Source: an uncultured Christensenellaceae bacterium
GTDB lineage: Bacteria; Bacillota; Clostridia; Christensenellales; SZUA-584
Direction: 5' to 3'
DNA: 64,000 nucleotides
Assembly: GCA_964441275.1 (NCBI GenBank)
Contig: CAYTUG010000010.1
Coordinates: 6,684-70,683, forward strand
Of the stretch, positions 9,568 to 59,651 are shown in pieces. The notes beneath the pieces are model-generated. The model did not search any database. It was not told the origin of the DNA and saw nothing but the letters and a program-made list of their open reading frames with translations. Positions within the stretch are counted from its first letter, which is position 1, and each line of letters begins with the position of its first letter. The position numbers and the translations under genes are program-made.

Positions 9568-9768
9568 ATGCTTATAAATATTGTAACCGCATCGGTTACG
9601 TTTGCCGGCACCTGCGCGCTTTGTATTGCGTGTTACTTAAAAGGAAAAAAAGCCGGCAAAAAAATTGCCGGCACAACAACAGCCGTACAAGAACAGCAAG
9701 AGCAAAACGCGTTGATGAAAAAATATGAGACCATAATAGGTTATGACCCTTACGGTGAAAACATATGA
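9568..9768 (+). CDS. Small membrane-anchored phage protein preceding the portal
   Basis: 66 aa from ATG 9568 behind GAAGGAGGA; N-terminal hydrophobic helix; stop overlaps the portal start. Confidence 0.7.
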   Translation: MLINIVTASVTFAGTCALCIACYLKGKKAGKKIAGTTTAVQEQQEQNALMKKYETIIGYDPYGENI

Positions 9769-11285
9769 GCATCACTTTGGCGTGGAAGGAATACGAGCAA
9801 GGGGTTGATTATAAAACGCGTATTGGCCTTTACCGTACCGTAGATTTAAACGAGCGTTTCTATGCCGGGGACCAGTGGGCGGGCATACCGCACGAGGGGT
9901 TGCCAACTCCCGTGGTAAATTTCATCCGATATGCTTCGGCATGGAAAATTGCCGCGGTAACCGACAGGCGCCTTTGTTTAAAATTTATGGCGGAGGGCGT
10001 CAACGATGGAAGCGATATTGGCGTGTACGCGAGGCAGATATCGGCTCACTGCGATCTTTTATGGGAACGGCTTAAAATGGACTATTTAACGAAAGAAGGG
10101 CTAAAACAGGCCGCGATAACCGGCGATTACGTGCAGTATTTTTATTGGGATTCATCGCTTGATACCGGTCAGGCGCTTTCCGGAGATATTGCAACCCAAC
10201 TTATTGACAACGTTAACTATTATCCGGGCAATCCTAACAGCGATGACGTGCAAAATCAACCTTATATAATTTTGTCATTTAGGGAACTGCTCTCAAAAAC
10301 ACGAAAGGAGGCGCGTGATAACGGGTGCGGCAGCTCAAACGAGATAACCGCAGATGAAAATAACGAATACGCCTCGGGAGATTGCGGAAAAATCGAGCTT
10401 GACGACAGCGGCAAATGCAATGTGCTGCTTAAGATGTACAAAAAAGACGGTAATGTGTGGTGTGAAAAATGCGTTAAAAACGCAATGGTGCAGCCGCCAA
10501 AAAACACTATGCTTACGAGATATCCAATTGCCGTTATGAACTGGGACACGCGGAAAAACTCATGCCACGGGGTGGCGGAAGTTACGGGGCTTATCCCCAA
10601 TCAGGTGTTTATTAACAAGATACTTGCGTTGTCGCAGCTTAACCAGATGCAGCTTAGCTTTCCTAAAGTGGTGTATGACCGCACGAGAATACGCGAGTGG
10701 AGCAACAAAGTTGCGGGGGCAATTGCGGTAAACGGGGATATAAGCGGAGCGGCGCAATATCTTTCCCCTCCCGGGATGTCGTATGACGCATGGAAGGGTT
10801 TAAACTCGACATTAGAAACCACTATGAGGATGATGGGCGCAAACGAAGTTACGCTTGGAAACATAAAAAACCCGGACAACACATCGGCTTTTATTGCGAC
10901 AAGGGATGCCGCTCTTGTGCCTTTGCAATCCCAGCAAGAGAGGTTTTATGCTTTCGTTGAAGATATCGGTTTGATATGGCTTGACTTTATTAAGCAGTAT
11001 TACCGGGCGGGGCGCATGATACCCGTTGAGCAAGACGGCGACCGGGTTTTCGTGCCGCTGCCCGATAACGTTTTGCAACAATATTCTATGCGGCTTAAAG
11101 TGGACGTTGGGCCTTCTTCTATGTGGAGCGAGGTTCAAGTTATAAAAACATTAGATAATCTCTTAAAGGGCGGACAGATAAGCTTGAGGCAATACCTTGA
11201 ACGCATGCCGGAGGGGTATATACCGCTTAAGGAAGAGTTAATAACGCAAATCAGCCAAAATGAACTACAGCCGGATGAAATGTAA
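9765..11285 (+). CDS. Phage portal protein (P22/podovirus-like)
   Basis: 506 aa; NERFYAGDQW, PVVNFI, TRYPIAVMNW..RKNSCHG, ANEVTLGN.....NTSAFIA, YLERMPEGYIP motifs typical of podophage portals; position before scaffold and capsid. Confidence 0.85.
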   Translation: MSITLAWKEYEQGVDYKTRIGLYRTVDLNERFYAGDQWAGIPHEGLPTPVVNFIRYASAWKIAAVTDRRLCLKFMAEGVNDGSDIGVYARQISAHCDLLWERLKMDYLTKEGLKQAAITGDYVQYFYWDSSLDTGQALSGDIATQLIDNVNYYPGNPNSDDVQNQPYIILSFRELLSKTRKEARDNGCGSSNEITADENNEYASGDCGKIELDDSGKCNVLLKMYKKDGNVWCEKCVKNAMVQPPKNTMLTRYPIAVMNWDTRKNSCHGVAEVTGLIPNQVFINKILALSQLNQMQLSFPKVVYDRTRIREWSNKVAGAIAVNGDISGAAQYLSPPGMSYDAWKGLNSTLETTMRMMGANEVTLGNIKNPDNTSAFIATRDAALVPLQSQQERFYAFVEDIGLIWLDFIKQYYRAGRMIPVEQDGDRVFVPLPDNVLQQYSMRLKVDVGPSSMWSEVQVIKTLDNLLKGGQISLRQYLERMPEGYIPLKEELITQISQNELQPDEM

Positions 11286-11381
11286 TTATATTTCGTTCAG
11301 TTATCAAAATAGTATAAACTCTAAATGCATTTTTCGCATAATATAAGACAGGGTTGCTGCCTTACCAAAATAGGAAAGTAG

Positions 11382-11786
11382 GTGACGCCCACGCAAGAAG
11401 ATACGTTGGAAAAAGAGCTCAAAGAAGCGTTTAAACGGCTTGAAACGGCAGACAAAGATTGCTCGCTGCTGATAAACAATGTGATTGAAAAAAATGCGGC
11501 CCGTCAAAACGGACGGATTGAGCAGCTGCATGAACAGTTAAGCAAATCGCGCGTTGCGATAGCTGAAACGGGCGGGCAAATTGTTGAGATAAAAGCCATT
11601 ATGCAAGGCGAATTAAAGCTTGTTTATGAAATGATCAACCGCCTGAATGAAAAGATAGAGCGCATAGAAGCTAACACCTCAAAAGAGCAAAACTCTAAGA
11701 TGATGTGGCGCATTGCGCTTATTGCCGCATTGCCGGGCGTAGTATCAATAGTAATAAAAATATTGGAGATCTTTTTAGCCGGTTAG
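11382..11786 (+). CDS. Coiled-coil protein with C-terminal TM helix (XhlA-like phage protein)
   Basis: Heptad-rich N-terminal ~110 aa followed by WRIALIAALPGVVSIVIKILEIFLAG. Confidence 0.55.
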   Translation: MTPTQEDTLEKELKEAFKRLETADKDCSLLINNVIEKNAARQNGRIEQLHEQLSKSRVAIAETGGQIVEIKAIMQGELKLVYEMINRLNEKIERIEANTSKEQNSKMMWRIALIAALPGVVSIVIKILEIFLAG

Positions 11787-11891
11787 AAGAGCCTGCTAAA
11801 CTATATTTGCGTTTAATCGGCAATTAATAAAATGCTTATCAAAGAAGGCTTTAAAGGCCTTTTTTGATACTTAAAAATAAGGAGATTAAAA

Positions 11892-12551
11892 ATGGAAAAC
11901 AATGCCCAACCACAGGCGCAAACGGCAAACCAGCCGGATATTCAAACCGATGTAGAAACCGGGTCAAACGATAAACAAGCGTTTTTAACGGTGCGCTACA
12001 ACAAAGAAGAGTTGCCTTTGTCCCGGGAGGCGGCAACGGAATATGCCCAAAAGGGTTTAAATTACGACAAAATAAGCGGCAGATTATCGCAATTGTCGCA
12101 AAAGGTTGAGGACTATCAGCATATTAACACTCTTGTCAGCGAAATTGCCCAGCAAAACGGAATAAGTGAAAACGACGCTTTCCTTGCACTGCGCCAGCGT
12201 GTGAGCGAAGAAGGCGCAGCACAGGCAAGTATAAACGCTCAGCTTGACGAGTTTATCGCCGCCCATCCGGATTACGATCCTTTGTCTTTGCCGGAAAGCG
12301 TAATAAACGAATGGAAAAGCGGCGTTCCGTTGTGTGATGCTTATGCCGCGTATGAAGAAATTAAAATCAGGCAGGTTAATGCACGGCAAACCAACGAGCA
12401 GAATGCCGCGGCAAGCATGGGGGGCGCGCAGGGAATAGGGGCTGCGGCGCCAAAGCCGCTTTCAAAAGAGGTTATTGCGCAGATGTCGCATTCCGAATTG
12501 GAAAACAACCATGGCAGGATATGGGCATTTTTAACGGGACAGAAAGAATAG
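11892..12551 (+). CDS. Phage capsid scaffolding protein
   Basis: Acidic helical protein, VRYNKEE...AQKGLNYDK motif, C-terminal MSHSELENN coat-binding-like end; directly upstream of the capsid gene. Confidence 0.75.
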   Translation: MENNAQPQAQTANQPDIQTDVETGSNDKQAFLTVRYNKEELPLSREAATEYAQKGLNYDKISGRLSQLSQKVEDYQHINTLVSEIAQQNGISENDAFLALRQRVSEEGAAQASINAQLDEFIAAHPDYDPLSLPESVINEWKSGVPLCDAYAAYEEIKIRQVNARQTNEQNAAASMGGAQGIGAAAPKPLSKEVIAQMSHSELENNHGRIWAFLTGQKE

Positions 12552-12566
12552 AAAGGAGAGATAGAT

Positions 12567-13406
12567 TTGCCTTACGAAAGTTTCAGGCCGGAAATTTTGG
12601 CCAAAGAGCTTATGACCGACAGGGGAAGAGATTGCGTTTTTAAAAACCTTTGCTACAAAGGTCCTATAATCGGCGAGATAGCGAAGAAGGGAGACGTTTT
12701 GCGAATAGCGGGCGTTGGACGCCCTACTGTGCGTGATTATATCCCCGGCAAAGACATAACGCTCGAGCAGAAAAAAAGCTATAACCAGGACCTGTATATA
12801 ACCGAGGCTAAGTATGTCAATGTTGAGGTGGACAGGGTAGATAAAGCGCAGGCGCAGGGAGAGGTGTTCGGGGTTGAAGTGCGGGAAGCAAAAAAGGCGC
12901 TTGCCCAAACGCTTGACGAACACCTTGCCGGGCTGCACAAACAGGCGGGCGGCGTGATAGAGAACAAAAGCTGCAATTCAGCCTCGATACTGTCTACTCT
13001 TGCGCAGGCCGAACAGGCTTTGCTTGAGATGGACGTGCCGTTTGAAGAAGAACGGTTTCTTGTAATATCGCCGGCAATTTATACAAAGCTTGTGCTTGGC
13101 AAGATAGTTTTTTTGCAGTCCAACGCCGAGGTTTTTGGCAAAGGATTTAAAGGAAGCTACTTAAATTTTGGGGTTTATGTGTCAAACTCTATCAAAAAGA
13201 CCGGTGAAGTGCACCATTGCATGGCATTTACCAGGCAGGCGATTGCGCTGGCGGAGCAAATACCGGCAAGCATGATAGAGCGTTATAAGCCCGAAAAAAC
13301 TTTTGCCGATGCCTTTAAAGTGTTGCATCTTTACGGAAGCACGGTTATAAGGCCGTCAGAGCTTATCCGCGTTGATTTAACAACGTCGGAAGAAACACAA
13401 ATATAG
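12567..13406 (+). CDS. Major capsid protein (P22 coat-like, HK97 fold)
   Basis: GEIAKKGDVLRIAGVGRPTVRDY, ITEAKYVNVEVDRVDKAQ, RFLVISP, FADAFKVLHLYGSTVIRP; TTG start behind GAAAGGAG. Confidence 0.85.
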   Translation: MPYESFRPEILAKELMTDRGRDCVFKNLCYKGPIIGEIAKKGDVLRIAGVGRPTVRDYIPGKDITLEQKKSYNQDLYITEAKYVNVEVDRVDKAQAQGEVFGVEVREAKKALAQTLDEHLAGLHKQAGGVIENKSCNSASILSTLAQAEQALLEMDVPFEEERFLVISPAIYTKLVLGKIVFLQSNAEVFGKGFKGSYLNFGVYVSNSIKKTGEVHHCMAFTRQAIALAEQIPASMIERYKPEKTFADAFKVLHLYGSTVIRPSELIRVDLTTSEETQI

Positions 13407-13418
13407 GGGGTGTTGTGT

Positions 13419-13793
13419 ATGGCTAATGTAAGCTTATTCGATATAAGCAAAGGCATGCCCGCCATTTTGCAAACCGAATCTATGACGCCGGCGGCAGCGG
13501 TACAGCAGGTGCCGTGCAAAAAAGATTCGAGGCTGTGCCTAAGGGTTTGCAATGCGAACGAGCAGGAGGACGTTGTGGTGCGGCTTAAAGCGGGCGGCGG
13601 GCCGCGGTGCGTGCTTGGAGATAAAGACATAACGGTAAAGGCGGGAGAGGTTGCGTACATTGCGCTTTGGGACACCGCGCGCTATAAAGATTTGGCAAGC
13701 GGAAACGTTAGCGTTGATTTGGTGGACGGCAACGGCGACGCTCTTAGCGAACAGTTGCTTTTACTGATTACAATAGAGGCGGCGCAGCTTTAA
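13419..13793 (+). CDS. Probable capsid decoration/cement protein
   Basis: 124-aa beta-rich protein immediately after the capsid gene; start moved to ATG 13419. Confidence 0.5.
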   Translation: MANVSLFDISKGMPAILQTESMTPAAAVQQVPCKKDSRLCLRVCNANEQEDVVVRLKAGGGPRCVLGDKDITVKAGEVAYIALWDTARYKDLASGNVSVDLVDGNGDALSEQLLLLITIEAAQL

Positions 13794-13805
13794 AGAAGCC
13801 GGACG

Positions 13806-13833
13806 GGGGGCATACCTGCCCCCTTAAATTTTT
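13806..13833 (+). terminator. Terminator-like hairpin after the capsid/decoration genes
   Basis: GGGGGCA-TACC-TGCCCCC stem followed by TTAAATTTTTT. Confidence 0.6.
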
Positions 13834-13853
13834 TAATTTTGGAGGTTGAGAAT

Positions 13854-14216
13854 ATGACTGCACAAGAAGCGTATGAGATGTCGCTTGCGCTTATCGACCA
13901 AGCCGAAGGCATTGATACTGCCGACTATGCATCAAGAGCGCCTGCTTTAATAGATGTGCTGCAGCGCGAACTTGCTTTTTATGAGGGAACAGCCGTCACA
14001 AGGCGGATAAAGAAACTTGAAGATATTTTGGAGATAGGGGAAGATACTGCAGAACGCATACTTCCCTATGGTTTGGCCGCAAACTTTGCGCTGTCCGATA
14101 AAAACGCGGATATGTATTCGGATTACAGTGCAATGTATCGCGCGCTTATTCGCACGATAAGGCCTGAAGATTCCGATATAACAGACGAGTACGGAGTTTT
14201 GGAGGGGCTTAAGTGA
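13854..14216 (+). CDS. Probable head-tail adaptor (P22 gp4 / tail tubular A-like)
   Basis: 120 aa helical, ILPYGLAANF motif, position between capsid and tail tube B; ATG 13854 behind GGAGG. Confidence 0.55.
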   Translation: MTAQEAYEMSLALIDQAEGIDTADYASRAPALIDVLQRELAFYEGTAVTRRIKKLEDILEIGEDTAERILPYGLAANFALSDKNADMYSDYSAMYRALIRTIRPEDSDITDEYGVLEGLK

Positions 14217-14267
14217 TAATCCGCCATTACCCGGGCGGGCAAACCCCAACGCAAGGAGCGAACTGCT

Positions 14268-16094
14268 ATGGAAAGAATAAAAGAGATTATGCTGCCCGAA
14301 TTAAACGGAGGGCTTAATGTTAACGATCCGGAGTATGCAATACTCGACAGCCAGAGCCACGATATGCTCAACATGTGGTACAGGGGAAAATCCTTAGTCA
14401 AGCGCAACGGTCAGGCTTTGATCGATTGCGGGATAGCGGGCGAGGTGCAAAGCATATCGCCGCTTTACTGCGATTACTATGTTGTGCATTCGAACGATAG
14501 GCTTTATAAATGGCGAGGAAATGAGGCGCAGCTGTTAAAGAGCGGCGTTGCAAGCGCCGAGGGCGTTTTTTGTGAGTTTTGCGGTACACTATATTATCTT
14601 GACGGAAATGAAATATGGGAAATCGCGCCTGATTTTAGCGTAAAGGAAGCGCGTCCTTACATACCTGTGGTAATTATAAACGCTCATCCCGACCTATCGG
14701 GCGGAGATGATAACGAGGCGTACAATATAATAGGTGCTGGATTTTGCGTAAAATACAATGGCGATGAAACATCGGCAGTGTATTCGCTGCCGCAAAAAGA
14801 GATTGACGAGACCGCGGTTTTGGTAAGCATAGACGCAGCCGATTTGAATGAAGGCGAGCATTTTAGCGTGGATAGAACGCAGGGCATTGTGAATTTTGCC
14901 GAAGGGACAAGCCCGAACGGGCCGCCCGGCGCAGGCACTAATAATGTATGGATTAGCGCGTTTAAAACGGCGCCGGAAAACAAACGGAAAATTACGGGGT
15001 GCAAAATAGCTTTGCCTTTCGGCGGGGAGGCATCCGGCATATTCGGGGGCACCAGGGTTTTTGTAACGGGCAACCCAAAGCATGCAAGAACGTACTGGCA
15101 CAGTGACTTAGGGCATGGATTGGGGAGCGGTATGCGTTATTTTCCGGATACTTGCGAAGAACATTTAAACCAAAACAATCAGCCGATAACCGCGGCGGCA
15201 AAAATGGGGGGAGAGCTCGTATTATTTAAACAGAGTTCGATATTTGTGCTTGGGTACGTATTCGACGGAGTTGACGCGTTTTACCCGGTAAGGGAGTGCC
15301 ACAGCGCCATTGGTTGTGATATGCCGAAAAGTTTAGCATTGATTGACAACGCGCTTGTTTTTGCGAATTCGAGCAGCGGAGTGCACATGCTAACGTCTAC
15401 CGACAACAAATCTGAAAACGTGGTAAAGCCGTTATCGGCAAATATAAATAAACTGCTTCTTAGTGAACCCGGGCTGCGCGATGCGTGTTCTATCGATCAC
15501 GGCAGGTACTATTGGTTATGTGCAGGAGGGCGGGCGTATCTTTGGGATTATGAGCAGACACCGTTTTATGACTTTGCAGATTACAAAAAAGCTCAACGCA
15601 GGCTTGCGTGGTATAGGTTTGATAACATAGACGCAAATGTTTTATGCGCCGATGCCGATACGCTTTATTACGGCGGCAAAAAGGGCATAGTATTATTCTG
15701 CAAAAATAAAAGCGACTTTGGCAGAAAATATGACGCTTATTTTACAACTAAGGCGTTTGATTTGATGTGTCCAAACAGATTAAAAACATTTCTAAAAGTA
15801 TATCCGAGTTTTGCGGCGCAGGGTAACATAAAAGCAACCGTTACCATATCAAGCGAAACCCATGATGTGTTTTCGAAACGAGTATTTGATATAAAGTCGT
15901 TTTCGTGGCTCGATTTTAACTGGAGCACATTTACGTTTGACGTTATAAAATTTTCAAGAACTTATGTTGTGCGTTTATCTATGCGGCGCGCCGCCTACAT
16001 ACAAATAAAGGTATCGGGAAGCGATAAAGACAGAGACGTGGGGATATCGGCGCTTAGGATAGAATACTGCTTTAACAACAAATTAAGGAGGTAA
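14268..16094 (+). CDS. Tail tubular protein B / DNA-stabilisation-like (P22 gp10 / T7 gp12-type beta-propeller)
   Basis: 608 aa; LNGGLNVND...MLNMW start, repeated beta-blade character, TRVFVTGNP, YFPD, VRECHSAIGCD motifs. Confidence 0.7.
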   Translation: MERIKEIMLPELNGGLNVNDPEYAILDSQSHDMLNMWYRGKSLVKRNGQALIDCGIAGEVQSISPLYCDYYVVHSNDRLYKWRGNEAQLLKSGVASAEGVFCEFCGTLYYLDGNEIWEIAPDFSVKEARPYIPVVIINAHPDLSGGDDNEAYNIIGAGFCVKYNGDETSAVYSLPQKEIDETAVLVSIDAADLNEGEHFSVDRTQGIVNFAEGTSPNGPPGAGTNNVWISAFKTAPENKRKITGCKIALPFGGEASGIFGGTRVFVTGNPKHARTYWHSDLGHGLGSGMRYFPDTCEEHLNQNNQPITAAAKMGGELVLFKQSSIFVLGYVFDGVDAFYPVRECHSAIGCDMPKSLALIDNALVFANSSSGVHMLTSTDNKSENVVKPLSANINKLLLSEPGLRDACSIDHGRYYWLCAGGRAYLWDYEQTPFYDFADYKKAQRRLAWYRFDNIDANVLCADADTLYYGGKKGIVLFCKNKSDFGRKYDAYFTTKAFDLMCPNRLKTFLKVYPSFAAQGNIKATVTISSETHDVFSKRVFDIKSFSWLDFNWSTFTFDVIKFSRTYVVRLSMRRAAYIQIKVSGSDKDRDVGISALRIEYCFNNKLRR

Positions 16095-16097
16095 GAT

Positions 16098-17030
16098 ATG
16101 GCGTTTGACAGGATGGCTTTTGAACCGCCGGAAGGTTTGCGCAATTCGGAATATTATCCGACTGCGCCCGAAAGCGAAGCTGATGCGCGCGAACAAGTGC
16201 AAGGGGTTTCCGACCAGATTAAAGAATTCTTAAACGAAACATTGCTGCCGCAGGTTGAGAATGCGGCCGCAGGCTGCTCGGGTGCGCAAAAAATAGGCAG
16301 CGAGGAGATACAAGGGGTTGACGGGACAAATGTTTTTGCGCAGATTGTCAGCCTTAAAACGCAGATAGACGATGTTTCGGCAGGCAGCGTCAGCGATGGT
16401 TCTATCACTACCCAAAAGATTGCGGAAGCTGCGGTTACCAAAGCAAAGGTTGCAAACAATGCGATTGGGGAGGCGCAATTAGCCCCAAGCGCCGTCACTC
16501 AAGAAAAGATTTGTAACGGAGCGGTCAGCGGAACGAAGATAGCCGAAAGCGCGGTTGCAGGCAACCATATAATGCCGGCGGCGGTATCGGGTGCGCATAT
16601 TGCCGACGGGGCGATCGGCAATACAAAGATAGCGGCGGGCGCGGTTAGCGCAACGAAGATTGCGGACGGGTGCGTTACCAAGTCCAAACTTTCACAAGCT
16701 GCGCTTGGATGGTCATTGGTGTTGGAAGAAGGGTTGAATTCGGGAAACGGAAGCATAGACATGCCGAGCCAGGCGGGCAAATCCGAAATGATGATACAGC
16801 TAAAAAGCGCGGACGGGATAGTGGCGTATGGCGAATCTGTTGCGCCCCTGAACGCGGAAGGGCGCACCATACCATATATGCACAACATAAGCACTTTCAA
16901 CCCCGGCAATTTCTCAGTGGATTACAGAACGATAACGGTGGGGGCTGTACAGATAAGCTACACATCTTCAAGAGCGGAAACAGTAGGAGGCTCAACCAAT
17001 CTTAAGCGGATAAGCGTTTTTACAAGATAG
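16098..17030 (+). CDS. Tail fibre/spike-like protein with decapeptide repeats
   Basis: Last gene of the module; ten 10-aa repeats of GAV(T/S)xxKIAx type; distinct beta-rich C-terminal domain. Confidence 0.65.
   Translation: MAFDRMAFEPPEGLRNSEYYPTAPESEADAREQVQGVSDQIKEFLNETLLPQVENAAAGCSGAQKIGSEEIQGVDGTNVFAQIVSLKTQIDDVSAGSVSDGSITTQKIAEAAVTKAKVANNAIGEAQLAPSAVTQEKICNGAVSGTKIAESAVAGNHIMPAAVSGAHIADGAIGNTKIAAGAVSATKIADGCVTKSKLSQAALGWSLVLEEGLNSGNGSIDMPSQAGKSEMMIQLKSADGIVAYGESVAPLNAEGRTIPYMHNISTFNPGNFSVDYRTITVGAVQISYTSSRAETVGGSTNLKRISVFTR
16398..16697 (+). repeat. Ten tandem 30-nt / 10-aa repeats inside the tail fibre gene
   Basis: aa 101-200: GSITTQKIAE AAVTKAKVAN NAIGEAQLAP SAVTQEKICN GAVSGTKIAE SAVAGNHIMP AAVSGAHIAD GAIGNTKIAA GAVSATKIAD GCVTKSKLSQ. 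Confidence 0.9.
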
Positions 17031-17149
17031 CGGTATGGTTGCAAAAAGCGCATACACAAGAAAAGCTGTTGCGCCTTTTTGAAGTTGAGGTATAATAGAA
17101 CATATAGTAACAAAACATAACATAGAGGAACTGCCGAAAGGAAGCTGAC

Positions 17150-17944
17150 ATGCTAAAGCAAAACCGGCAAGCGCAGATACTTGAAATGCTGCATAATGAC
17201 GGCGAGGTAATGATAAGCAAGCTAAGCCGTCATTTTGGAGTAGCGGAGATGACCATACGGCGTGATCTTGATTCGCTTGCGCAAAACGGGCAGATTTTGC
17301 GAATACATGGAGGTGCGGTACCCAAAGAACAGGGCTTAGAACAAGCCGGAACAGGCAAACCGAAGATTGACAACAAACAAGCCAAAATAGCAGTGGCATG
17401 CAAGGCGCTTTCATTTATTTGCGATGGCATAACAGTATATTTTGATTCGGGAGACATAAACTTTATGTTGGCGCAGCTTCTGCCCGTCTCTTATCATATA
17501 ACGGCGTTGACCAATTCCATACCCACGGCGACAGAGCTTATCAAGCGTCCTTTCGTTTCGGTTATAATGGTCGGCGGAGAGATAAAAAAAAGCGCTTTGG
17601 CGTGCAGGGGCCCGGCGGCCGAAGAGTTTATTGGGCGTTTTAGGGTTGATCTTGCTTTTATGGACGTTAGCGCGATAGGGGCGCGCGGCGAGCTGTTTGT
17701 GAGCAGCGTTTTGGAGGCGGGGTTTAAAAAGAATGTATTGGCGGCGGCGGGACAAAGCATAGTTGTTGCCGATTCTTCGAAAATTGGCAAGCACAGCCTA
17801 TGCAGCTTTGGAGACGCTTATCAGATCGCCGCAATTGTAACGGACGATGGTATTGAACCTTCGCATCTATCAATGCTGCACAAATGCGGCGCACAGGTTA
17901 CTGTGGCAAAAAGCGAAGGGCAGAGGGCTTCGCTGTTAGGTTAG
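17150..17944 (+). CDS. DeoR/GlpR family transcriptional regulator
   Basis: HFGVAEMTIRRDLDSL..RIHGGA HTH; YFDSG, VVADSSKIG sensor-domain motifs. Confidence 0.93.
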   Translation: MLKQNRQAQILEMLHNDGEVMISKLSRHFGVAEMTIRRDLDSLAQNGQILRIHGGAVPKEQGLEQAGTGKPKIDNKQAKIAVACKALSFICDGITVYFDSGDINFMLAQLLPVSYHITALTNSIPTATELIKRPFVSVIMVGGEIKKSALACRGPAAEEFIGRFRVDLAFMDVSAIGARGELFVSSVLEAGFKKNVLAAAGQSIVVADSSKIGKHSLCSFGDAYQIAAIVTDDGIEPSHLSMLHKCGAQVTVAKSEGQRASLLG

Positions 17945-18017
17945 CGGTATTTTTTAATCCGGGTATAAACGGGTTTAAATACAGAATGTTATCGCTCGGT
18001 TTTGGAGGGAAAAAAAT

Positions 18018-18374
18018 ATGTCATTTTGCTGGTGTACAATACATGTGCGCAACATGGAAGAATCGCTCTTGTTTTATCAGGATATTGTGGGGCTAAGATT
18101 AACGCGCCGGTTTAACGAAACGCCCGGTACGGACATATCTTTTTTGGGCGACGGAGAAACGCAAATCGAGCTGATAGTCGGAAAGGGCGAGCCGTATTCG
18201 GGCGGCGGAATAGCGATAGGGTTTATGGTTGGCAGCCTTGAAAAGAAGATGGAGTTTGTTATCGGAAAAGGATTAAAAATTCACAGCGGCCCTTTTTCGC
18301 CAAGCGCCCGCACTCGTTTTTTCTTCGTGCAGGACCCAAACGGAGTGCTTGTGCAGTTTGTTGAACAAAAATAA
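18018..18374 (+). CDS. VOC/glyoxalase family protein
   Basis: TIHVRNMEESLLFYQDIVGL and FFFVQDPNGVLVQFVE. Confidence 0.9.
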   Translation: MSFCWCTIHVRNMEESLLFYQDIVGLRLTRRFNETPGTDISFLGDGETQIELIVGKGEPYSGGGIAIGFMVGSLEKKMEFVIGKGLKIHSGPFSPSARTRFFFVQDPNGVLVQFVEQK

Positions 18375-18380
18375 TAGCCA

Positions 18381-18899
18381 TTATCTGCCGGCTACAACGG
18401 ATTCATAATCAACCGGAGTATTCGTTTTATTTATCTCGTTTATCATTAACGCGCGCAAATATCCCCTGGCGCAAGTAACGGAGTGCACAAAATATCCGTT
18501 TTTTTCGTACAGAGCGACAACGGAGGGCATGCAGGCGGCGGTGTGCAGCGCAATAGCGCTAACGTTTAAGGCAACGCATTCCTGCTTCACTTTTTCAATA
18601 AGCAGCTTCCCAACCCCAAAAGATTGGTATCTTGGATGTACCGCAAGCCTTGAAAGGTAAGCGGTCTGACTGCCTAACAACTCAAACCGCACAGCCCCGA
18701 TTGCGATATTGTCAATTTCACATAAGTAAACTTCTTTTTGCTCAATATCTTTTTTTATATCATCAATTGTTTCGTTGAGCGCCGCTACGTTATTTTTTTG
18801 GCCGATAGAACGCGCATAATCTAAAAAAGCTTTTCGGGTTAAAGATTTTACCGCATTGGCATCGTTGATCGACGCTTTTCTGATGACGGCGTTTAGCAT
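18381..18899 (-). CDS. GNAT family N-acetyltransferase, translationally coupled to argF
   Basis: YLSRLAVHPRYQSFGVGKLL motif A; start overlaps the argF stop at 18899. Confidence 0.88.
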   Translation of the reverse strand: MLNAVIRKASINDANAVKSLTRKAFLDYARSIGQKNNVAALNETIDDIKKDIEQKEVYLCEIDNIAIGAVRFELLGSQTAYLSRLAVHPRYQSFGVGKLLIEKVKQECVALNVSAIALHTAACMPSVVALYEKNGYFVHSVTCARGYLRALMINEINKTNTPVDYESVVAGR

Positions 18900-21166: not shown

Positions 21167-21170
21167 TGGT

Positions 21171-46974: not shown

Positions 46975-47010
46975 ACTATTGCGGCAATATGCCATTAAGG
47001 AGGGATAAAA

Positions 47011-49699: not shown

Positions 49700-49731
49700 G
49701 GCGAAAGGCTGGAACCATATAGCCTTTCGCC
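49700..49731. terminator. Strong hairpin between convergent clpB and DUF362 genes
   Basis: Perfect 11-bp stem GGCGAAAGGCT/AGCCTTTCGCC. Confidence 0.7.
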
Positions 49732-49760
49732 AACGCTCTGTTTTTATAAACCTTGGGGGC

Positions 49761-50843: not shown

Positions 50844-51126
50844 TTTTGCCTCCAATATGTTAATCACATTATTGTATCATAGCCTTGGGTATTAATGAAA
50901 TGAATAATTTATTCAATTTCTGCCTTAGCGTTTGAAGCTTCTTGCGCTTTTTGTGTCAAATAATATTTTTAGAATAAAAAGCTATAGTAATAAGAAAGTG
51001 GTTGAATGTTTACAGATGTGTTTATTAATATAAGCGGCTCGGAATAGCAAAATAACAGCAGGTAATTTATATAAAAAATTATCATTTGGTATAAATGCTG
51101 CCCAATAAATATTTGGAGACCTATGT

Positions 51127-53856: not shown

Positions 53857-53857
53857 A

Positions 53858-54889
53858 ATGCCGAAGGTTTTGGTTGTCGATGATGAAAAAAGCATACGCG
53901 TTACAATAGGGGAGTTTTTAAAAAGAGCGGGATATGATGTCGTTACGGCCGATAATATGCAATGTGCGACCAATCTTATCAATGAAAACGATTTTGACGC
54001 TGTTTTGACGGATATTATAATGCCAAAAGGCTCGGGAGTATCTTTACTAAAGGAAATCCATAACAGGCAATTAAATATGCAGGTGCTCATGATGACGGGA
54101 GAGCCTACGGTGGAAACCGCAGTCGATGCCGTAAGGCATGGCGCTCGGGATTATCTTGCCAAACCAATAGACCGTGACGAGCTGCTTAAGGCCGTAAGGA
54201 ATGCGGTAAGCTACAAAAAATTGCTTGATGATAAAGAGCGCCTTGAACGTGAAAACAAGGAGCAAAAGCTTAACTTGGTGTGCCTTGTAGAAGAGCGGAC
54301 ACAAAAGATGCGGCAGGCGATGCTAAACACTGCGTATGCGGCCGCTGCAATGCTTGATTTGCGGGACCCTTACACCGCCGGGCACCAGCGCAGGGTGGGC
54401 AACCTTGCAAGCATCATCGGGCGCGAGATAGGCCTTTCGGAAGATCTGCAAGAAGGGCTTAACCTTATAGGATGCATTCATGATGTGGGAAAAATCATGG
54501 TGCCTACCGATATTCTTAACAAACCGGGACAAATATCAGAGCTTGAATACGAACTTATAAAAGAACATGCGCAAAAGGGTTACGAGGTGTTACGCAACTA
54601 TGAGATGCCATGGCCTGTTGCAGAGATTATCTATCAGCATCATGAGCGGCTTGATGGAAGCGGTTATCCCCGCGGTCTAAAAGGCGATGAAATTTATCTT
54701 GAAACTTGTATTATATCGGTTGCCGATGTGGTGGAGGCAATGATGACGCACCGCCCGTACCGGCCGAGCCTTGGATTAAAAGCCGCGCTTGATGAGATAA
54801 CCTTAAACAAAGGTACTCTCTATCACCCGGATGTAGTGGATGTTTGCGTTAAGCTGTTTCTTAAAAAAGATTATCAGCTTATAGAATAA
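53858..54889 (+). CDS. Response regulator with HD-GYP phosphodiesterase domain (RpfG-like)
   Basis: VVDDE..DIIMP..KP receiver; HQRRV, HDVGK, HHERLDGSGYP. Confidence 0.93.
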   Translation: MPKVLVVDDEKSIRVTIGEFLKRAGYDVVTADNMQCATNLINENDFDAVLTDIIMPKGSGVSLLKEIHNRQLNMQVLMMTGEPTVETAVDAVRHGARDYLAKPIDRDELLKAVRNAVSYKKLLDDKERLERENKEQKLNLVCLVEERTQKMRQAMLNTAYAAAAMLDLRDPYTAGHQRRVGNLASIIGREIGLSEDLQEGLNLIGCIHDVGKIMVPTDILNKPGQISELEYELIKEHAQKGYEVLRNYEMPWPVAEIIYQHHERLDGSGYPRGLKGDEIYLETCIISVADVVEAMMTHRPYRPSLGLKAALDEITLNKGTLYHPDVVDVCVKLFLKKDYQLIE

Positions 54890-55180
54890 TATATTAAGAC
54901 AGGCCGCATAGCATAAAAACGTTATATTTGCGGTAACTTATAGCAGTTTGCAACAAACAAAGCAGATTTTAGTTGCGTACATAACCCATACGGTTGTATC
55001 AAAGGTTTGGACGCCCTGTTTTAATGTATTTGAAACAAGCAAGAAGGTTTAAAACGCTTGCCGTTTGCCTGTAAATAAGATCCGCTTTAAAGTATAATTA
55101 TTTAGTTATGACGGATTAGACAAAGTTTATTGTTTAATATTGTGTTATTATAATAGACTAATTAAAAAAGGGAGTACGGA

Positions 55181-56806
55181 ATGGAAAAACACTGCTATGT
55201 AAATTATGCCGGGCGCAAAAACATTAAGACATATTTTGACGACTGCACGCGGCTATGGCAGATTGCCGGCAATCTTGGGGCTAAAGATGCGGTGTGCGCA
55301 CTGCTTAACGGCCGTTTAGTTTCGCTTTCCGATGCGCCGGAAGAGGGTGCGAGCGTAACGCTGCTAAAACCAACTGAACATGAACATGCATCACGCGTAT
55401 TTATGCGCGGGCTGACATTTGTGCTCTACCGCGCAGCACATGAACTGTTCCCGGACAGAAAACTGCGTATAGATTATATGCTTTGCGGAGGCGTTTACTG
55501 TGAATTGGGAAAGCTCAATAAAAACGATATTGACAGAATACAAAAAAGAATGTACGAGCTAATAGCGAAAGATGAAGATTTTGTGTTAAGGCTTATGCGG
55601 GTTGACGAGGCCGAAAGGATAATGCGCAAAGAGGGGCTTGAATCAAAGGCAAAGCTGCTGAAGTTTCGGCCGTTTGATTATTACCGTCTTTATCAATACG
55701 GACAATTGCATAACTATTTTCACGGTATAATGCCCAAAAGTGCGGGCTGCCTTAAAGGCTCTAACATTTTTGCATATGCAGACGGCATGATACTCGTATA
55801 TCCGACTCCTTATTCAATGGCGCACACCCCCATCATTGAACAACCCAAATATGCTGAGATATTCCGGCAGGCCGACCGCTGGGCAAAAGAGCTTTCGGCT
55901 TCTTATGTAACCGATTTAAACAACCTTCTAAGGGAAGGCAATATTGAGGAGTTAATAAACATTAACGAGATGCTGCACGAACGCACCATTTCGGAAATAG
56001 CAAATACTATTGCAAACAGAAAGGATGTTCGGGTGGTGCTTATTGCGGGGCCCTCGTCCTCAGGAAAAACGACTTTGGCTTCCCGTCTAACTGTTCACTT
56101 AAAGGCGCAAGCCAAGCGATGTTTTGCCGTATCGCTTGATGATTACTATAAAGATAAAGCAGACCAGCCATTGGGTGAAGACGGTGAATACGATTTTGAA
56201 AGCATAGATGCGCTGGACATTCCTAAGTTTAGCAATGATATAAAGCTGCTTCTTTCGGGGGCGCAAGCCCAAATGCCTAAGTACGATTTCTTTTCGGGCG
56301 TCCGGGTTAAAACTGTGCCCATAGAGATTGACGATGAGATTGTAATTGTTGAGGGCATACATGGCTTAAACAACGCATTGCTTGAAAGTTTAGAAAGAAA
56401 ATTTAAGTTTAAAATATTTATTTCGCCGCTTACCACTCTTAACTTAGACGAGCACAGCGTTGTCATGCCCGAAGATTTGCGGCTTTTAAGGCGGTTAGTG
56501 AGGGACAAAAGGGCAAGAGGTTTTTCGTTCGCGCAAACTTTTGCTATTTGGGATAAGGTAAGGCATGGCGAATACAAGTACATATTGCCGTATCAAGAGT
56601 CGGCGGATGTAATGTTTAATTCCACATTGCTCTACGAGCCGCTGATACTAAAAAAATATGCGTACAGCGAATTGAGACGCTTTACACCCGATATGCCAAA
56701 TTATCCCGAGGCGTTATCTCTGCTTAAGTTCTTGAATTACTTTTTAAGTTATGGCGAGGATGGCTCCGTTCCCCGCTACAGCATATTGCGCGAATTTATT
56801 GGATAA
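55181..56806 (+). CDS. Uridine kinase/phosphoribulokinase-family protein with N-terminal TGS/ThrRS-like domains
   Basis: IAGPSSSGKTT, SLDDYY, VEGIHGLN, RRLVRD, YQESADVMFNS; N-terminal region resembling ThrRS N1/N2. Confidence 0.85.
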   Translation: MEKHCYVNYAGRKNIKTYFDDCTRLWQIAGNLGAKDAVCALLNGRLVSLSDAPEEGASVTLLKPTEHEHASRVFMRGLTFVLYRAAHELFPDRKLRIDYMLCGGVYCELGKLNKNDIDRIQKRMYELIAKDEDFVLRLMRVDEAERIMRKEGLESKAKLLKFRPFDYYRLYQYGQLHNYFHGIMPKSAGCLKGSNIFAYADGMILVYPTPYSMAHTPIIEQPKYAEIFRQADRWAKELSASYVTDLNNLLREGNIEELININEMLHERTISEIANTIANRKDVRVVLIAGPSSSGKTTLASRLTVHLKAQAKRCFAVSLDDYYKDKADQPLGEDGEYDFESIDALDIPKFSNDIKLLLSGAQAQMPKYDFFSGVRVKTVPIEIDDEIVIVEGIHGLNNALLESLERKFKFKIFISPLTTLNLDEHSVVMPEDLRLLRRLVRDKRARGFSFAQTFAIWDKVRHGEYKYILPYQESADVMFNSTLLYEPLILKKYAYSELRRFTPDMPNYPEALSLLKFLNYFLSYGEDGSVPRYSILREFIG

Positions 56807-56847
56807 ATGTAATTAGTATTTGCGGCTGGCCGGCTGTTATCGGCGCT

Positions 56848-56901
56848 AAAATGAGCGGCATTGAGCGAACCTGTGATGTAACCTTTTTTTGCGGGGATAA
56901 T
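56848..56901 (+). promoter_or_regulatory. Putative activator-dependent late promoter of the holin operon
   Basis: ATGAGCG/TTGAGCG with 10-bp period (56851, 56861) and GATAAT at 56896-56901. Confidence 0.4.
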
Positions 56902-56926
56902 GCATCCTTGCGGAAAGGAGGCTTTT

Positions 56927-57319
56927 ATGGATTGGACACAGGTTGTGACAGCTGTTGTAGGGCTGATGTTTACCGGGGTGTTGTTGCCGCTTATAAACGC
57001 TTTATTCGTGTGGCTGAAAAACAAAACGAGCAATGACCAAATGTTCGCGGCGCTTTGCGAGGCTCAAACAGTTGCGGATGATGTTGTGGCAAGCCTTTCG
57101 GCCACCGTGGTCAGCTCTCTTAAAAAAGCAAGCGGCAACGGAAAGTTAACGGCCGATGATGCAAAAAAAGTGGCCGCATTAGCGGCGGAGCAATTTATTA
57201 GCGATTTGTCCGAGCGGTCGCTTGAGCTGCTGAAAAACAGGACGGATGATTTTGCATCGTATGTTGCCCGGTTGATTGAGGCGCGGCTGGTTGTGCTTAA
57301 AGGAGGGGGAAAGGCGTGA
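56927..57319 (+). CDS. Phage holin-like protein (LL-H type)
   Basis: 130 aa from ATG 56927 behind GAAAGGAGG; N-terminal TM, then LKKASGNGKLTADDAK...LIEARL soluble part typical of LL-H holins. Confidence 0.7.
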   Translation: MDWTQVVTAVVGLMFTGVLLPLINALFVWLKNKTSNDQMFAALCEAQTVADDVVASLSATVVSSLKKASGNGKLTADDAKKVAALAAEQFISDLSERSLELLKNRTDDFASYVARLIEARLVVLKGGGKA

Positions 57320-57936
57320 ATGCGGCGGACAGCATTAAAAGCTATTTTGACAACCTTGAGCAAGCACAAAAAGCTTCGATTATAGCGCAGTTTGAACAGG
57401 CCTACGCAGAGCTGCAAAAAAAGTATGAAAACGTGCCGGCGCAATATCAGTATCTCAAAAATGAAGCGTATGTAAATAACGCGCTAATCGAAAAGGCCCG
57501 CCGTGAAAACATGGCAAACATGGGGTTAGGCGGTACCGGAGGAGCTTCTCAAACTTTGGAGCAACGTAACACGGGGCGGCTTTTAAGAGAGATTGGAGAC
57601 ATTTCAAGACAGCAACAGGATTACAGCGATAACGTTAACATGGCTTTGTACAATCTGAAAACAAAGCACAAAGCCGACTTAACGGAAGTAGAATCTAAAA
57701 CGGCGTCCGAGCGTATAGCCGCTTTAACCGAACAGGCGCGTTTTGAAGCGCAATTCGAGCAAGCGCGGCAAAAAAACTTGTTTGACCAGGCTTACAGCCT
57801 TTACAAGAAAAAACTAATAACCGCAGCGCAATTTACAGAGATGACAGGCATAGCTTTGAAAAAGAGCGGTTCAAAAAAGAATAAAAACCCCGTGCAAAAG
57901 AGCACGCCGTATATTGATAATTATTATATGGTTTAG
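57316..57936 (+). CDS. Phage virion-associated (internal/ejection-like) helical protein
   Basis: Q/A-rich helical protein with AYVNN...RENMANMGLGGTGGASQT motif recalled from Clostridial podophage late proteins; coupled to the holin gene. Confidence 0.5.
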   Translation: MNAADSIKSYFDNLEQAQKASIIAQFEQAYAELQKKYENVPAQYQYLKNEAYVNNALIEKARRENMANMGLGGTGGASQTLEQRNTGRLLREIGDISRQQQDYSDNVNMALYNLKTKHKADLTEVESKTASERIAALTEQARFEAQFEQARQKNLFDQAYSLYKKKLITAAQFTEMTGIALKKSGSKKNKNPVQKSTPYIDNYYMV

Positions 57937-57942
57937 TGTAAC

Positions 57943-57963
57943 AGGGGCGAGATGAACCGCCCC
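57943..57963 (+). terminator. Hairpin after the holin operon
   Basis: GGGGCG-AGATGAAC-CGCCCC stem. Confidence 0.55.
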
Positions 57964-58280
57964 GTTAACAAAAACGGTGTGAAAAAGCAGCATTAACACC
58001 GCCGACGTTTTACAAGCGGCTAAACCTTGTAATAGTCCAATGTTAGAACCTGCGGAATGCGGCAGCAAATCTAACATCTTGCAAGCCAGCTTTTTGGGTT
58101 TTCCGAATCAGCAAAAGTAAAACAAAAATTAGCGCTTATATATCAAGTATATTATGCGGTTATCGAATCTAATAATTTAATAACACAATCAAAGGGTTAA
58201 TTGGAGCCGCTAATATGCTTAGCAAACAAAAACTGATTACAAAAAATCGCAGAGTAATTTAGTGCGAGCCGCCTAAACAG

Positions 58281-58685
58281 CTATTTTTTTTGGTCGGCGT
58301 TTGCTTGCTTATCGTCTTTCATTGCCTGGGCGAGCTTAATGGCAAGCCGAAGTTCTTCACCGCTTACGTTGCGCTCTGCAAGCTCTTCCAACATTTCTAA
58401 CGTAATTCCGCGGCTTGACAGCGCGGGCGATAGAGTGGGCTGATTCAGGGTTTTATAACGGTGCTGCTGCGCAATTCCAAGAAGGTAATCGGCTGAGCAT
58501 ACCAAAGCGTCGCAAAGCTTTTCAAGAACCTCTATTGACGGGCGCTTGCGCCCACTCTCTATCTCCGCAAGAAAAGCCTGGGTGATACCAATGCGCGCGG
58601 AAAGCTGAGACTGCGTTAAACCGAGCTGCTGCCGCTGATGCTTTAATTTTTTGGGGAGGCTGTCCAAATTAGTTACTTCCTTCAT
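58281..58685 (-). CDS. XRE-family CI-like repressor
   Basis: LKHQRQQLGLTQSQLSARIGITQAFLAEIESGRKRPSIEVL HTH; start probably ATG 58685 or TTG 58667, not 58862. Confidence 0.88.
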   Translation of the reverse strand: MKEVTNLDSLPKKLKHQRQQLGLTQSQLSARIGITQAFLAEIESGRKRPSIEVLEKLCDALVCSADYLLGIAQQHRYKTLNQPTLSPALSSRGITLEMLEELAERNVSGEELRLAIKLAQAMKDDKQANADQKK

Positions 58686-58710
58686 ATAATAATTTAAGGC
58701 ACACAAATGG

Positions 58711-58784
58711 ATTATAGCCATAAGCGATAGATTTGTAAAGTATAGCTTTAAGCTATTGACAACTTGTTTGATTTTGGATAGGGT
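58711..58784. promoter_or_regulatory. Divergent promoter pair with two 15-bp operators (lambda-like switch)
   Basis: Leftward TTTACA-17-TATAAT (58739..58711); rightward TTGACA-17-TAGGGT (58756..58784); operators ATAGCcataAGCgAT (58714-58728) and ATAGCtttaAGCTAT (58742-58756). Confidence 0.75.
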
Positions 58785-58808
58785 GAAAGAGAATACGGAG
58801 GTGAGATC

Positions 58809-59045
58809 ATGAGAGTGGCGTTGGCTTTGATACGTGAGGGCGCGAATATTTCGCAGGTGCAAATTTCTAAAAGAGCAGGAATATCTCAGGGCTATTATTC
58901 AGACATTGAATGCGGCGTCAGACGCCCTTCGCCCGATGTTGCGGTGCGCATTGCGCGGGCGCTCGACATCCCCGAATGTGAAATATTCAGCATATTTTAC
59001 AATGAGAATCAAAGCAGAAAAGGACATGCAACACGGTTATCATAA
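58809..59045 (+). CDS. Cro-like XRE HTH protein
   Basis: 78 aa, ISQVQISKRAGISQGYYSDIECGVRRPSPDVA; GGAGGTG RBS; divergent from the CI-like gene. Confidence 0.88.
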   Translation: MRVALALIREGANISQVQISKRAGISQGYYSDIECGVRRPSPDVAVRIARALDIPECEIFSIFYNENQSRKGHATRLS

Positions 59046-59180
59046 TTTATCACTTTAAAAGAGTATCATGACTTTGTGACATATCGCAGCGTAAAGTTGC
59101 GCATTTGGGTTTCTGATGGGCAATTTTCTCCTGTTTTCAAATGCGGTTAGACGCCGTAATATTAGTTGCGAGGTTAATCT

Positions 59181-59651
59181 ATGAGAGAAATAGAAATATT
59201 TTTAAAGGATTATTGGTATGCTACACGCAGCATAGGCAGGTTGATGCTTGATTTATCGGCCGCGCGGCACGCTTATGAACAAAGCCGCCAATATATACCG
59301 TCTACAGGCGGGCTGATAAAAACAAATAGATCGCGCTATGCGCATGACAGCGCGGTTGAGAAGGCGGTAATACTTGCGGTGGATCAATTCCGTGCTGAAG
59401 TTGAAAGCATTGAGCGCAGGCTAAACTACGAAAGGCGCACCATTGAAATTATTGAACAGACGGTTGCCAACGCGGGACTGTCCGCACCTGAAGCCGCATA
59501 CATAAGATTGCGTTACTTCGAGGGAAAAAGTGTAGAAGCTTCTGCGCAGCGTTTGTTTTGCTCGGTAGCAACAGCCGGAAGAATAAGAGTTTGCGCGCTT
59601 GATAAAATAGAGAATGCGGTGGGGAAGGAGAATATTGCAAAAGCGCTGTGA
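59181..59651 (+). CDS. RinA/ArpU-family phage late transcriptional activator
   Basis: 156 aa; N-terminal coiled coil, C-terminal sigma4-like HTH IRLRYFEGKSVEASAQRLFCSVATAGRIR. Confidence 0.75.
   Translation: MREIEIFLKDYWYATRSIGRLMLDLSAARHAYEQSRQYIPSTGGLIKTNRSRYAHDSAVEKAVILAVDQFRAEVESIERRLNYERRTIEIIEQTVANAGLSAPEAAYIRLRYFEGKSVEASAQRLFCSVATAGRIRVCALDKIENAVGKENIAKAL

Follow-up and report, generated by a model that had tools for sequence, protein, structure and literature searches.

A candidate dispersed podophage particle system, probably of the gene transfer agent type, in Christensenellales

A 64,000-nt stretch of DNA from an uncultured Christensenellaceae bacterium (contig CAYTUG010000010.1; the whole stretch is called the window here) carries phage-like genes at two places, a head and short-tail operon (locus 1, 9568-17030) and a smaller group that includes CI-like and Cro-like regulators and a putative late activator (locus 2, 56927-59651). 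A first-pass annotation proposed that these are complementary parts of one host-maintained, phage-derived system producing particles of the gene transfer agent (GTA) type. The question raised by the window is whether two loci lying ~40 kb apart among host genes can belong to a single system. Scans of open reading frames (ORFs) and of Pfam and PHROG profiles confirmed the distance, the intact ORFs of both loci and the host genes between them. Homology to one phage, conserved synteny, selection, co-divergence with the host and a shared repeat promoter together support the proposal, and we consider it probable that the loci belong to a dispersed, domesticated, vertically inherited and co-regulated podophage particle system, probably GTA-like, that is known here from its genes alone. 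The most informative new features are the repeat promoter common to both loci and the CI/Cro/Ltr cassette still present at locus 2.

The decisive result on the origin of the loci came from a podophage contig of ~40 kb (L056; related loci and contigs are cited by such handles), in which ten genes have homologues in the window, in the same order and all within the two loci. In order, L056 contains early genes, a Cro-like helix-turn-helix (HTH) gene (50% identity), a 156-aa activator (38%), a TerS-like gene, the large terminase subunit gene (TerL) and a small ORF. The contig continues with the portal (49%), scaffold, major capsid protein (MCP; 48%), p127, p125 and a 605-aa protein (47% identical to p608 of the window), and then with the fibre (33%), a carbohydrate-binding module (CBM) protein, a homologue of p206 (30%) and a 2005-aa internal-type protein. 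Since one phage holds homologues from both loci in order, they derive from a single phage lineage and not from two unrelated phages. The nearest cultured phages are podophages of Bacillus megaterium, genus Pagevirus (Page, Pony and Pookie). The portal is 34% identical to that of Page, p608 is 29% identical to Page_15, a 'virion structural protein', and the scaffold resembles Page_5; this kinship supports the prediction of a short-tailed morphology. Patterns for the portal and MCP retrieved no close relative from the 2.9 million viral contigs of IMG/VR, and a terminase scan of that database returned only relatives that were at most 52% identical. A 9.6 kb record without annotation, titled 'Bacteriophage sp.' and obtained from human faeces (L046; MT836592.1, 1-9588), has a compact layout, TerS-TerL-portal-scaffold-MCP-123aa-203aa-642aa, is 26-47% identical to the window family and includes p127-like and p608-like genes; it may be another domesticated or GTA-like module instead of a phage fragment.

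Comparison of upstream regions revealed that a direct repeat, TGAGCG-N4-TGAGCG, precedes both the head-tail operon and the first gene of locus 2, which encodes a 130-aa protein, and that the repeat also lies upstream of terminase operons in relatives. At locus 1, the element (TGAGCGATTATGAGTG; 9472..9487, + strand; TGAGCG-N4-TGAGCG being the family consensus) occupies the same place as in relatives, and a -10-like hexamer, GACAAT (9499..9504, +), follows 11 nt after the second repeat. Between this promoter and the first gene lies a terminator-like leader hairpin with a T-run (9518..9543, +; free energy (dG) -15.9 kcal/mol, z -3.15), which has equivalents in relatives. The element upstream of locus 2 is an exact copy (TGAGCGGCATTGAGCG; 56852..56867, +) that is kept in L041 and L039, and the leader hairpin there (56884..56918, +; dG -18.4 kcal/mol) pairs with the ribosome-binding site. 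With at most one mismatch allowed, the window contains three sites against 0.23 expected, at 9472, at 56852 and inside a coding region, the two intergenic sites thus lying one at each locus. In 897 kb of non-redundant related loci, all 20 exact copies of the repeat were on the gene strand and none on the opposite strand; they lie upstream of the small ORF and portal, of the 130-aa gene, of terminase operons and of late operons that have been inserted. Alignment of 34 sites gave the consensus aAa.tTGAGCGATt.TGAGCG, with nAnAAT following at a fixed distance of 11 nt, and a GC hairpin with a T-run usually comes after the promoter, immediately ahead of the first ribosome-binding site.

Replacement of the -35 box by tandem 6-bp repeats with a 10-bp period is typical of activator-dependent promoters. 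As the same promoter architecture precedes all of the operons, we read the loci as one regulon, the dispersed members of which would be co-regulated in trans. The conserved leader hairpin further suggests that anti-termination may take part. Extra repeat promoters lie inside the module in some lineages, between the gene for a transmembrane (TM) protein and the scaffold gene or before inserted genes (L007 12359, L002 12744, L020 7875, L022 5461), and because of them the head-tail operon of these lineages appears to be split into several candidate activator-dependent units. A scan of metagenome contigs for TGAGCGATTNTGAGCG gave at least 120 matches; none of the matches listed was accompanied by a gene of the system in tblastn searches, and they were set aside as chance occurrences.

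A candidate for the trans-acting regulator is encoded at locus 2 itself. A CI-like HTH repressor (58281..58685, - strand), which has its own sigma-70 promoter match at 11 of 12 positions (- strand, 58739-58711), is divergent from a Cro-like HTH gene (58809..59045, +), and the latter is followed by a 156-aa protein (59181..59651, +) that resembles the Ltr-type late activators (ArpU/RinA-like, similar to sigma-70 region 4). The 156-aa protein matched phrog_36 (4e-11), with further matches to phrog_248 (5e-4) and the sigma70-ECF superfamily (5e-5; below cutoff), and it follows the Cro-like gene in L056 and L041 as well. Experiments on RinA, ArpU and LtrC, members of the Ltr superfamily, showed that they bind to short direct repeats ahead of the terS promoter; late transcription requires no other phage protein, and these activators are in turn controlled by cI (PMC3753634). 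The cassette might nevertheless be a leftover of the same phage that no longer controls the structural operons, with a host regulator driving the TGAGCG promoters. It was found in the window and L041 only, being absent from the 10 kb flanks of the other loci, as such a leftover could be. A 10-bp repeat period and a replaced -35 box, moreover, also fit activators of the response-regulator type. Purifying selection on the cassette genes, for which the ratio of nonsynonymous to synonymous divergence (omega, dN/dS) is 0.08-0.12 against L041, is not what a leftover would lead one to expect; Ltr-family proteins act through just such short direct repeats at late promoters (PMC3753634), and the homologous activator gene of L056 precedes the late operon. 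We therefore regard control by a host regulator as rather unlikely and favour the activator of locus 2 as the candidate.

The family of the head-tail module was surveyed with one genome per GTDB species and was found in 31 species. Thirty of the 31 records are titled Christensenellales, Christensenellaceae, Clostridia/Clostridiales or Bacillota metagenome-assembled genomes (MAGs); the other, L018 (JBLNCA010000034.1), bears a Burkholderiales label that is most likely a binning error. Relatives of the portal number thousands, and those that are 73-89% identical sit on large bacterial contigs. Mapping by tblastn showed that the order small ORF-portal-TM protein-scaffold-MCP-p127-p125-p608-fibre is kept in nearly every locus, and Pfam searches of the flanks detected no integrase, excisionase, replication or att-like feature within 10 kb of any module locus.

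Conserved synteny, dN/dS below 1 and congruence with the host had been named in the first-pass annotation as marks of a host-maintained system; the first two were observed, and the divergence of the module was found to track that of the host gene panE. The arrangements panE-module-DeoR and udk-130aa-206aa-HTH-HTH-activator recur in related species. The host gene panE lies upstream of the module in L007-9, L013-15 and L059, and in L007 and L008 it is accompanied by a SpoIID-dockerin gene, as in the window; DeoR lies downstream in L011, L014, L015 and L059. More distant species carry the module in differing host neighbourhoods. At locus 2, L041/L042 share the order ClpB, DUF362, histidine kinase, response regulator, kinase-domain protein, 130 aa, 208 aa, HTH, HTH and 156-aa activator, with locus 2 genes 72-77% identical between L041 and the window and host neighbours 66-87%, and the 130-aa/206-aa pair stands alone in another host context in L039. 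Both loci are present in independent assemblies and the same syntenies recur in other species, so that a misassembly joining them is unlikely.

Comparison of the window with L007/L008 showed that the phage-derived proteins are better conserved (MCP 92%, portal 89%) than their host neighbours (panE 77-80%, SpoIID 73-75%). By the Nei-Gojobori method, dN was 0.05 for MCP and 0.08 for the portal, against 0.15 for the flanking panE and 0.16 for SpoIID, and omega was ~0.02-0.3 for all module genes, values that are rough since dS was above 1 or saturated. Over 28 species pairs, the identity of the module tracked that of panE (r=0.96 for the portal and r=0.96 for p608), in a test of co-divergence that is not fully independent, as panE adjoins the module. 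Two elements, both in Christensenellaceae genomes, combine homologues from the two loci. A single unit of ~27 kb on a 3.09 Mb Christensenellaceae contig (L002/L038), running from terminase to p206 with host feoAB directly after it, has the order terminase, portal, MCP, p608, fibre, dockerin protein, NlpC/P60 endolysin, further genes and the 130-aa and 206-aa homologues; in L030, the 130-aa/206-aa pair is ~3 kb downstream of the fibre gene. Neither element contains integrase or replication genes.

The synteny, low dN, tracking of panE and absence from IMG/VR speak for neither a circulating phage nor a decaying remnant, and indicate that the module has been inherited vertically over a long time under selection. 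Functionless relics of one or two prophages in decay would account for a window that is devoid of terminase, integrase, replication and endolysin genes and has a clearly decayed element nearby (~62 kb). They would hardly have kept intact ORFs across 31 species despite saturated synonymous divergence, nor a dN below that of neighbouring host genes, a conserved promoter motif with strict strand bias and a synteny and divergence that follow panE, and this explanation is very improbable. Another possibility would be that the head-tail operon is a helper-dependent satellite, comparable to a capsid-forming phage-inducible chromosomal island (PICI), or part of an active prophage, with locus 2 an unrelated regulatory remnant. 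Capsid-forming satellites do exist and the neighbourhoods differ between more distant species, but position is kept within clades, host genes lie within ~200 nt of the operon on either side, no feature of mobility or replication was detected within 10 kb of any locus, IMG/VR holds no close portal or MCP relative, and locus 2 shares both the motif and the phage ancestry of locus 1. We give this possibility scarcely any weight.

A particle that packages DNA would need a terminase, and in relatives this was located. In the distant members L002, L025 and L030, TerL precedes the portal at a distance of a few kb, and in the clade closer to the window an intact TerL stands alone among host genes (L043/44, L045). 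The orphan TerL is 56-61% identical to that of L056 and 68-69% identical to that of L025. One 199,139-nt contig carries both a module (L059, ~170.1-161.0 kb), flanked by panE and DeoR and with a portal 82% identical to that of the window, and, 32 kb away on the same strand, a terminase operon (L057, 128.7-126.4 kb). This operon, located among sugar-metabolism and transport genes, consists of the motif followed by genes for a 148-aa TerS-like protein, a 63-aa ferredoxin and a 485-aa TerL. An orphan terminase at a further locus, which the first-pass annotation had expected, thus exists in relatives, one of which carries it and the module on a single contig; for the genome behind the window, such a locus is still a prediction.

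The ferredoxin gene (4Fe-4S; Fer4_15/Fer4_13) is conserved directly upstream of TerL (L057 9760-9951; L058 5156-5347; L002 2805-2996; L025 just upstream of 7061) and is an odd passenger in a packaging operon; in the motif-driven operons of L057 and L025 it separates the TerS-like gene from TerL. A PHD_like antitoxin-type gene lies directly downstream of the orphan terminase in L043 (11519-12144) and L045 (11527-12080). It was considered as TerS and rejected; it pairs with a HicA-like 73-aa ORF, seen in L043, and the two are probably a toxin-antitoxin pair.

Several observations weigh against a complete, functioning system in the organism from which the window derives. Pfam searches of large ORFs, together with tblastn with the family's terminase, confirmed the earlier statement that the 64-kb window contains no terminase, integrase or replication gene, so that packaging in this organism is a prediction only. 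The same tblastn searches with the family's TerS-like protein, endolysin and c33 gave no match in the window. In 16 relatives, among them L007 with its 89% identical portal, the fibre gene is followed by genes for an NlpC/P60 endolysin and for c33, a TM protein, and a Gp10_C-like gene of the sister clade is likewise missing from the window; because of these gaps, the window copy may be partly eroded. The regulatory part of the proposal has its own difficulties. The 156-aa activator was seen beside the system in the window and L041 only and had no match to the curated ArpU model and no above-cutoff match in NCBIfam, so that of the RinA/ArpU assignment made earlier, membership of the Ltr/sigma-region-4-like class stands and identity with ArpU or RinA is not demonstrated. 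It is by analogy that we infer its binding to, and activation of, the TGAGCG repeats, and the late intergenic region of L056 holds no better than a degenerate version of the repeat. No domesticated locus encodes a homologue of the 2005-aa internal protein of L056, and the large ejection protein that the first-pass annotation placed at further loci was found nowhere in the family. With no counterpart of this giant protein, delivery of DNA by the particles is doubtful. The roughness of omega and the proximity of panE, given above with the values concerned, count in the same direction.

With these points taken into account, we propose the following course of events. A podophage of the L056 lineage, distantly akin to the Bacillus Pagevirus phages, would have been domesticated in an ancestor of a Christensenellales clade, with loss of integration, replication and most early genes and scattering of the remaining late genes among host genes. 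Each scattered operon has kept its repeat promoter, the -10-like box 11 nt on and then the leader hairpin. The CI-like/Cro-like switch would control the Ltr-type activator (59181-59651), which upon de-repression would bind the direct repeats in trans and switch on the dispersed late operons, including the TerS-like/ferredoxin/TerL operon that is located elsewhere in relatives. The cell would then assemble small short-tailed capsids and, as no replicating phage genome is available, these would most likely package host DNA by headful, in the manner of a GTA-like viriform.

GTA-like packaging has been seen for Christensenellaceae HGM11616 and QANA01 in gut virus-like particles (VLPs), with fragments of ~6.3 kb in QANA01 and no genes named (PMC12946183). 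We suggest tentatively, as a possibility that falls somewhat short of an even chance, that the gene set described here is the basis of such packaging of Christensenellales chromosomes in gut VLPs. The system would then be an independently domesticated Page-like podophage with at least three operons (TerS-like/ferredoxin/TerL; head-tail; and the 130-aa/206-aa pair with or without lysis genes), organized as one Ltr-type repeat regulon under a CI/Cro/activator switch acting in trans. The particle could, on the other hand, be domesticated without serving gene transfer, acting as a killer or lysis particle in the manner of PBSX or providing a capsid for some other host function, with DNA perhaps packaged and not delivered. 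PBSX is a Gram-positive precedent, the giant internal/ejection protein of the phage has left no surviving homologue at any locus, endolysin and fibre genes are kept in most relatives, and the authors who described the GTA of Faecalibacterium prausnitzii (FpGTA) leave the same question open for that particle (PMC12946183). That portal, TerS-like and TerL genes are intact and under selection in relatives implies that DNA packaging matters, p206, a helical hairpin placed like a podovirus internal protein, has been kept, and packaging of the GTA type has been reported for Christensenellaceae (PMC12946183). On balance, a particle without a role in transfer is an unlikely alternative, though one to be reckoned with, and a GTA-like system is the reading we retain.

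The genes of locus 1 form a tight operon of nine intact ORFs on the + strand, as seen in the ORF listing and in Pfam and PHROG scans. A small 66-aa protein with an N-terminal TM helix (9568..9768), the homologue of which precedes the portal in L056, has a stop codon that overlaps the start of the P22-like, podovirus-type portal (9765..11285; P22_portal PF16510, 1.5e-9; phrog_156, 3e-23). Next are a 134-aa coiled-coil protein with a C-terminal TM helix and a weak XhlA-like match (11382..11786), a scaffold-like protein (11892..12551; phrog_14606; 29% identity to Page_5) and the 279-aa MCP (12567..13406; phrog_267, 1.7e-34), which shows 87-92% identity across species. These are followed by p127 (13410..13793) and p125 (13839..14216), two small conserved proteins that have homologues in L056, the former structural and head-associated and the latter a candidate head-tail adaptor. 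Between them lies a strong internal terminator-like hairpin (13805..13824, +; 8 bp stem, 6 GC, T-run) that resembles the terminators annotated after capsid-region genes of phage Page. The operon ends with p608, a 608-aa virion structural protein (14268..16094; phrog_3287, 2.7e-21), and the tail fibre (16098..17030; phrog_892, 6e-22). No tail tube, tape-measure, sheath or contractile-tail gene was found among the genes of locus 1 by Pfam or PHROG. Profile searches of the PDB with p608 and portal alignments gave zero matches, and NCBIfam yielded nothing useful for any structural protein of the system. Antisense 'ORFs' across the capsid gene (cluster c12) were dismissed as artefacts of crude ORF calling. 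The operon is flanked by panE (8352-9374) and DeoR (17150-17944), and the GC content of the module, 0.44-0.49, is inside the host range, so that composition carries no signal.

At locus 2, the regulatory cassette is preceded on the + strand by two genes for which the labels 'holin' and 'virion-like' given at first proved weakly founded. The 130-aa protein (56927..57319) has one N-terminal TM helix and weak holin matches (phrog_36209, 1e-4), and is a candidate for a holin or an ejection-associated protein. The 206-aa protein p206 (57316..57936) was assigned to no family by the searches. Its relatives are few (27 clusters, the sole named member coming from a Christensenellales MAG), and a confident AlphaFold model (pLDDT 84) shows a long plain helical hairpin with a Gly-rich loop. 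Foldseek searches of the PDB and BFVD gave marginal matches (E >= 2e-3), some of them to 'internal virion protein' entries and LysM proteins. Because the homologue in L056 sits just before the giant internal protein, an internal or ejection role is plausible and p206 is a candidate for such a protein.

Pfam searches showed that the ~40 kb between the loci is ordinary host chromosome, with argBCD/OTCase, L1/L10/L11, NusG, ClpB, DnaJ, metal and other transporters, PAS/GGDEF/HD-GYP signalling proteins and a uridine-kinase-domain protein; tRNA genes were found nowhere in the window. Beyond locus 2, short broken ORFs at 61829-62770, one of which weakly matches AAA_25 (RepA/DnaB-like), make up the decayed element referred to above, which was noted in the earlier annotation and for which the accessible part of phage L056 contains no homologous sequence.

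Host-type genes are found within or beside the phage-derived genes of some relatives. The gene mgsA (methylglyoxal synthase) adjoins the terminase inside the element of L002 (5028-5480) and the 130-aa/206-aa pair in L030 (19757-20194), so that host genes are interleaved with domesticated genes in both, and in L041 a serpin gene (8220-9422) that is absent from the window lies between the uridine-kinase-domain gene and the 130-aa gene. A 121-aa dockerin-domain protein is encoded after the tail fibre in L038 (2697-3062), L027 (18759-19124) and L030 (17146-17511), and its position suggests that a particle protein could dock onto cohesin- or cellulosome-type scaffolds; the SpoIID-SH3 protein of the window (6194-8092) also has a dockerin.

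Gene transfer agents from bacteria other than Alphaproteobacteria are, to our knowledge, very few. FpGTA (2026) is the only reported short-tailed Gram-positive example, and the Christensenellales set adds concrete candidate genes. The signature of TGAGCG-N4-TGAGCG, -10-like box and leader hairpin offers a means of gathering the regulon's members from any Christensenellales genome, and a plausible route of domestication would lead from the single late promoter and activator of a phage to a regulon of several loci. Christensenellales are abundant in guts and anaerobic digesters, and the particles, should they carry host DNA between cells, would open a major path for gene flow within the order.

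Among known systems, FpGTA is the closest in kind. A literature search found one study of a podovirus-like GTA in Bacillota, in which FpGTA was described as ~40 nm podovirus-like particles containing ~8.5-9 kb of host DNA (PMC12946183, Nat Commun 2026), and the earlier remark that a short-tailed GTA had not been described in Clostridia has been overtaken by it. FpGTA is encoded by two operons 125 kb apart, I with TerS, TerL, portal, scaffold and MCP and II with tail, receptor-binding protein (RBP), holin and endolysin, is near-ubiquitous within the host genus and has no replication or integration genes (PMC12946183). The present system is likewise podovirus-like, phage-derived, divided into split operons in anaerobic Clostridia and devoid of replication and integration genes. 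It differs in its host (Christensenellales versus Oscillospirales), in a terminase detached from the portal operon, where FpGTA I keeps TerS/TerL, and in its Page-like ancestry, CI/Cro/Ltr cassette and shared repeat promoter, as well as in being characterized only at the level of genes. The MCP of the window had no match, even at E<=10, to NCBIfam N4-gp56, the family assigned to the FpGTA capsid. The present system is of the same kind as FpGTA and of another family.

Like RcGTA of Rhodobacter capsulatus and other alphaproteobacterial GTAs, the system is domesticated, vertically inherited, under purifying selection and spread over several loci. The chromosomal loci of RcGTA are co-regulated in trans by a dedicated activator. 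RcGTA is siphovirus-like, has its terminase in the main cluster and is under GafA/CtrA host control instead of a phage-type CI/Cro/Ltr cassette, and the two are unrelated in sequence. In the Caulobacter crescentus GTA, which is under GafYZ control, a promoter and then a terminator precede the structural cluster, suggesting activation and read-through control of the sort that may operate here (ref. 19 in PMC12946183); no GafY/Z-like protein was identified in the present system. PBSX of Bacillus subtilis is also a Gram-positive phage-like element with a phage-type repressor and packages host DNA, but it is a contiguous, myovirus-like killing particle with a contractile tail and an in-cluster terminase. 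Phage satellites (PICI and capsid-forming PICI) differ in having an integrase, a replication module and att sites, which were not found within the 10 kb flanks here.

With L056 and Pagevirus, the system shares gene order and homology for portal, scaffold, MCP, p608, fibre, TerL, Cro-like protein and activator. The phages keep early and replication genes, TerS-TerL beside the portal, large tail or internal proteins and a 40 kb genome, whereas the window keeps ~10 late or regulatory genes scattered among host genes. As in the Ltr systems (RinA, ArpU, LtrA-C; PMC3753634, PMC3152322), a small putative activator, sigma-region-4-like, is located after the immunity or early region, repeats lie upstream of the late promoter, and control would be exerted by cI. 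In those systems a single promoter upstream of terS serves one contiguous late operon in cis, whereas in the family of the window the signature is copied before several operons that lie tens of kb apart.

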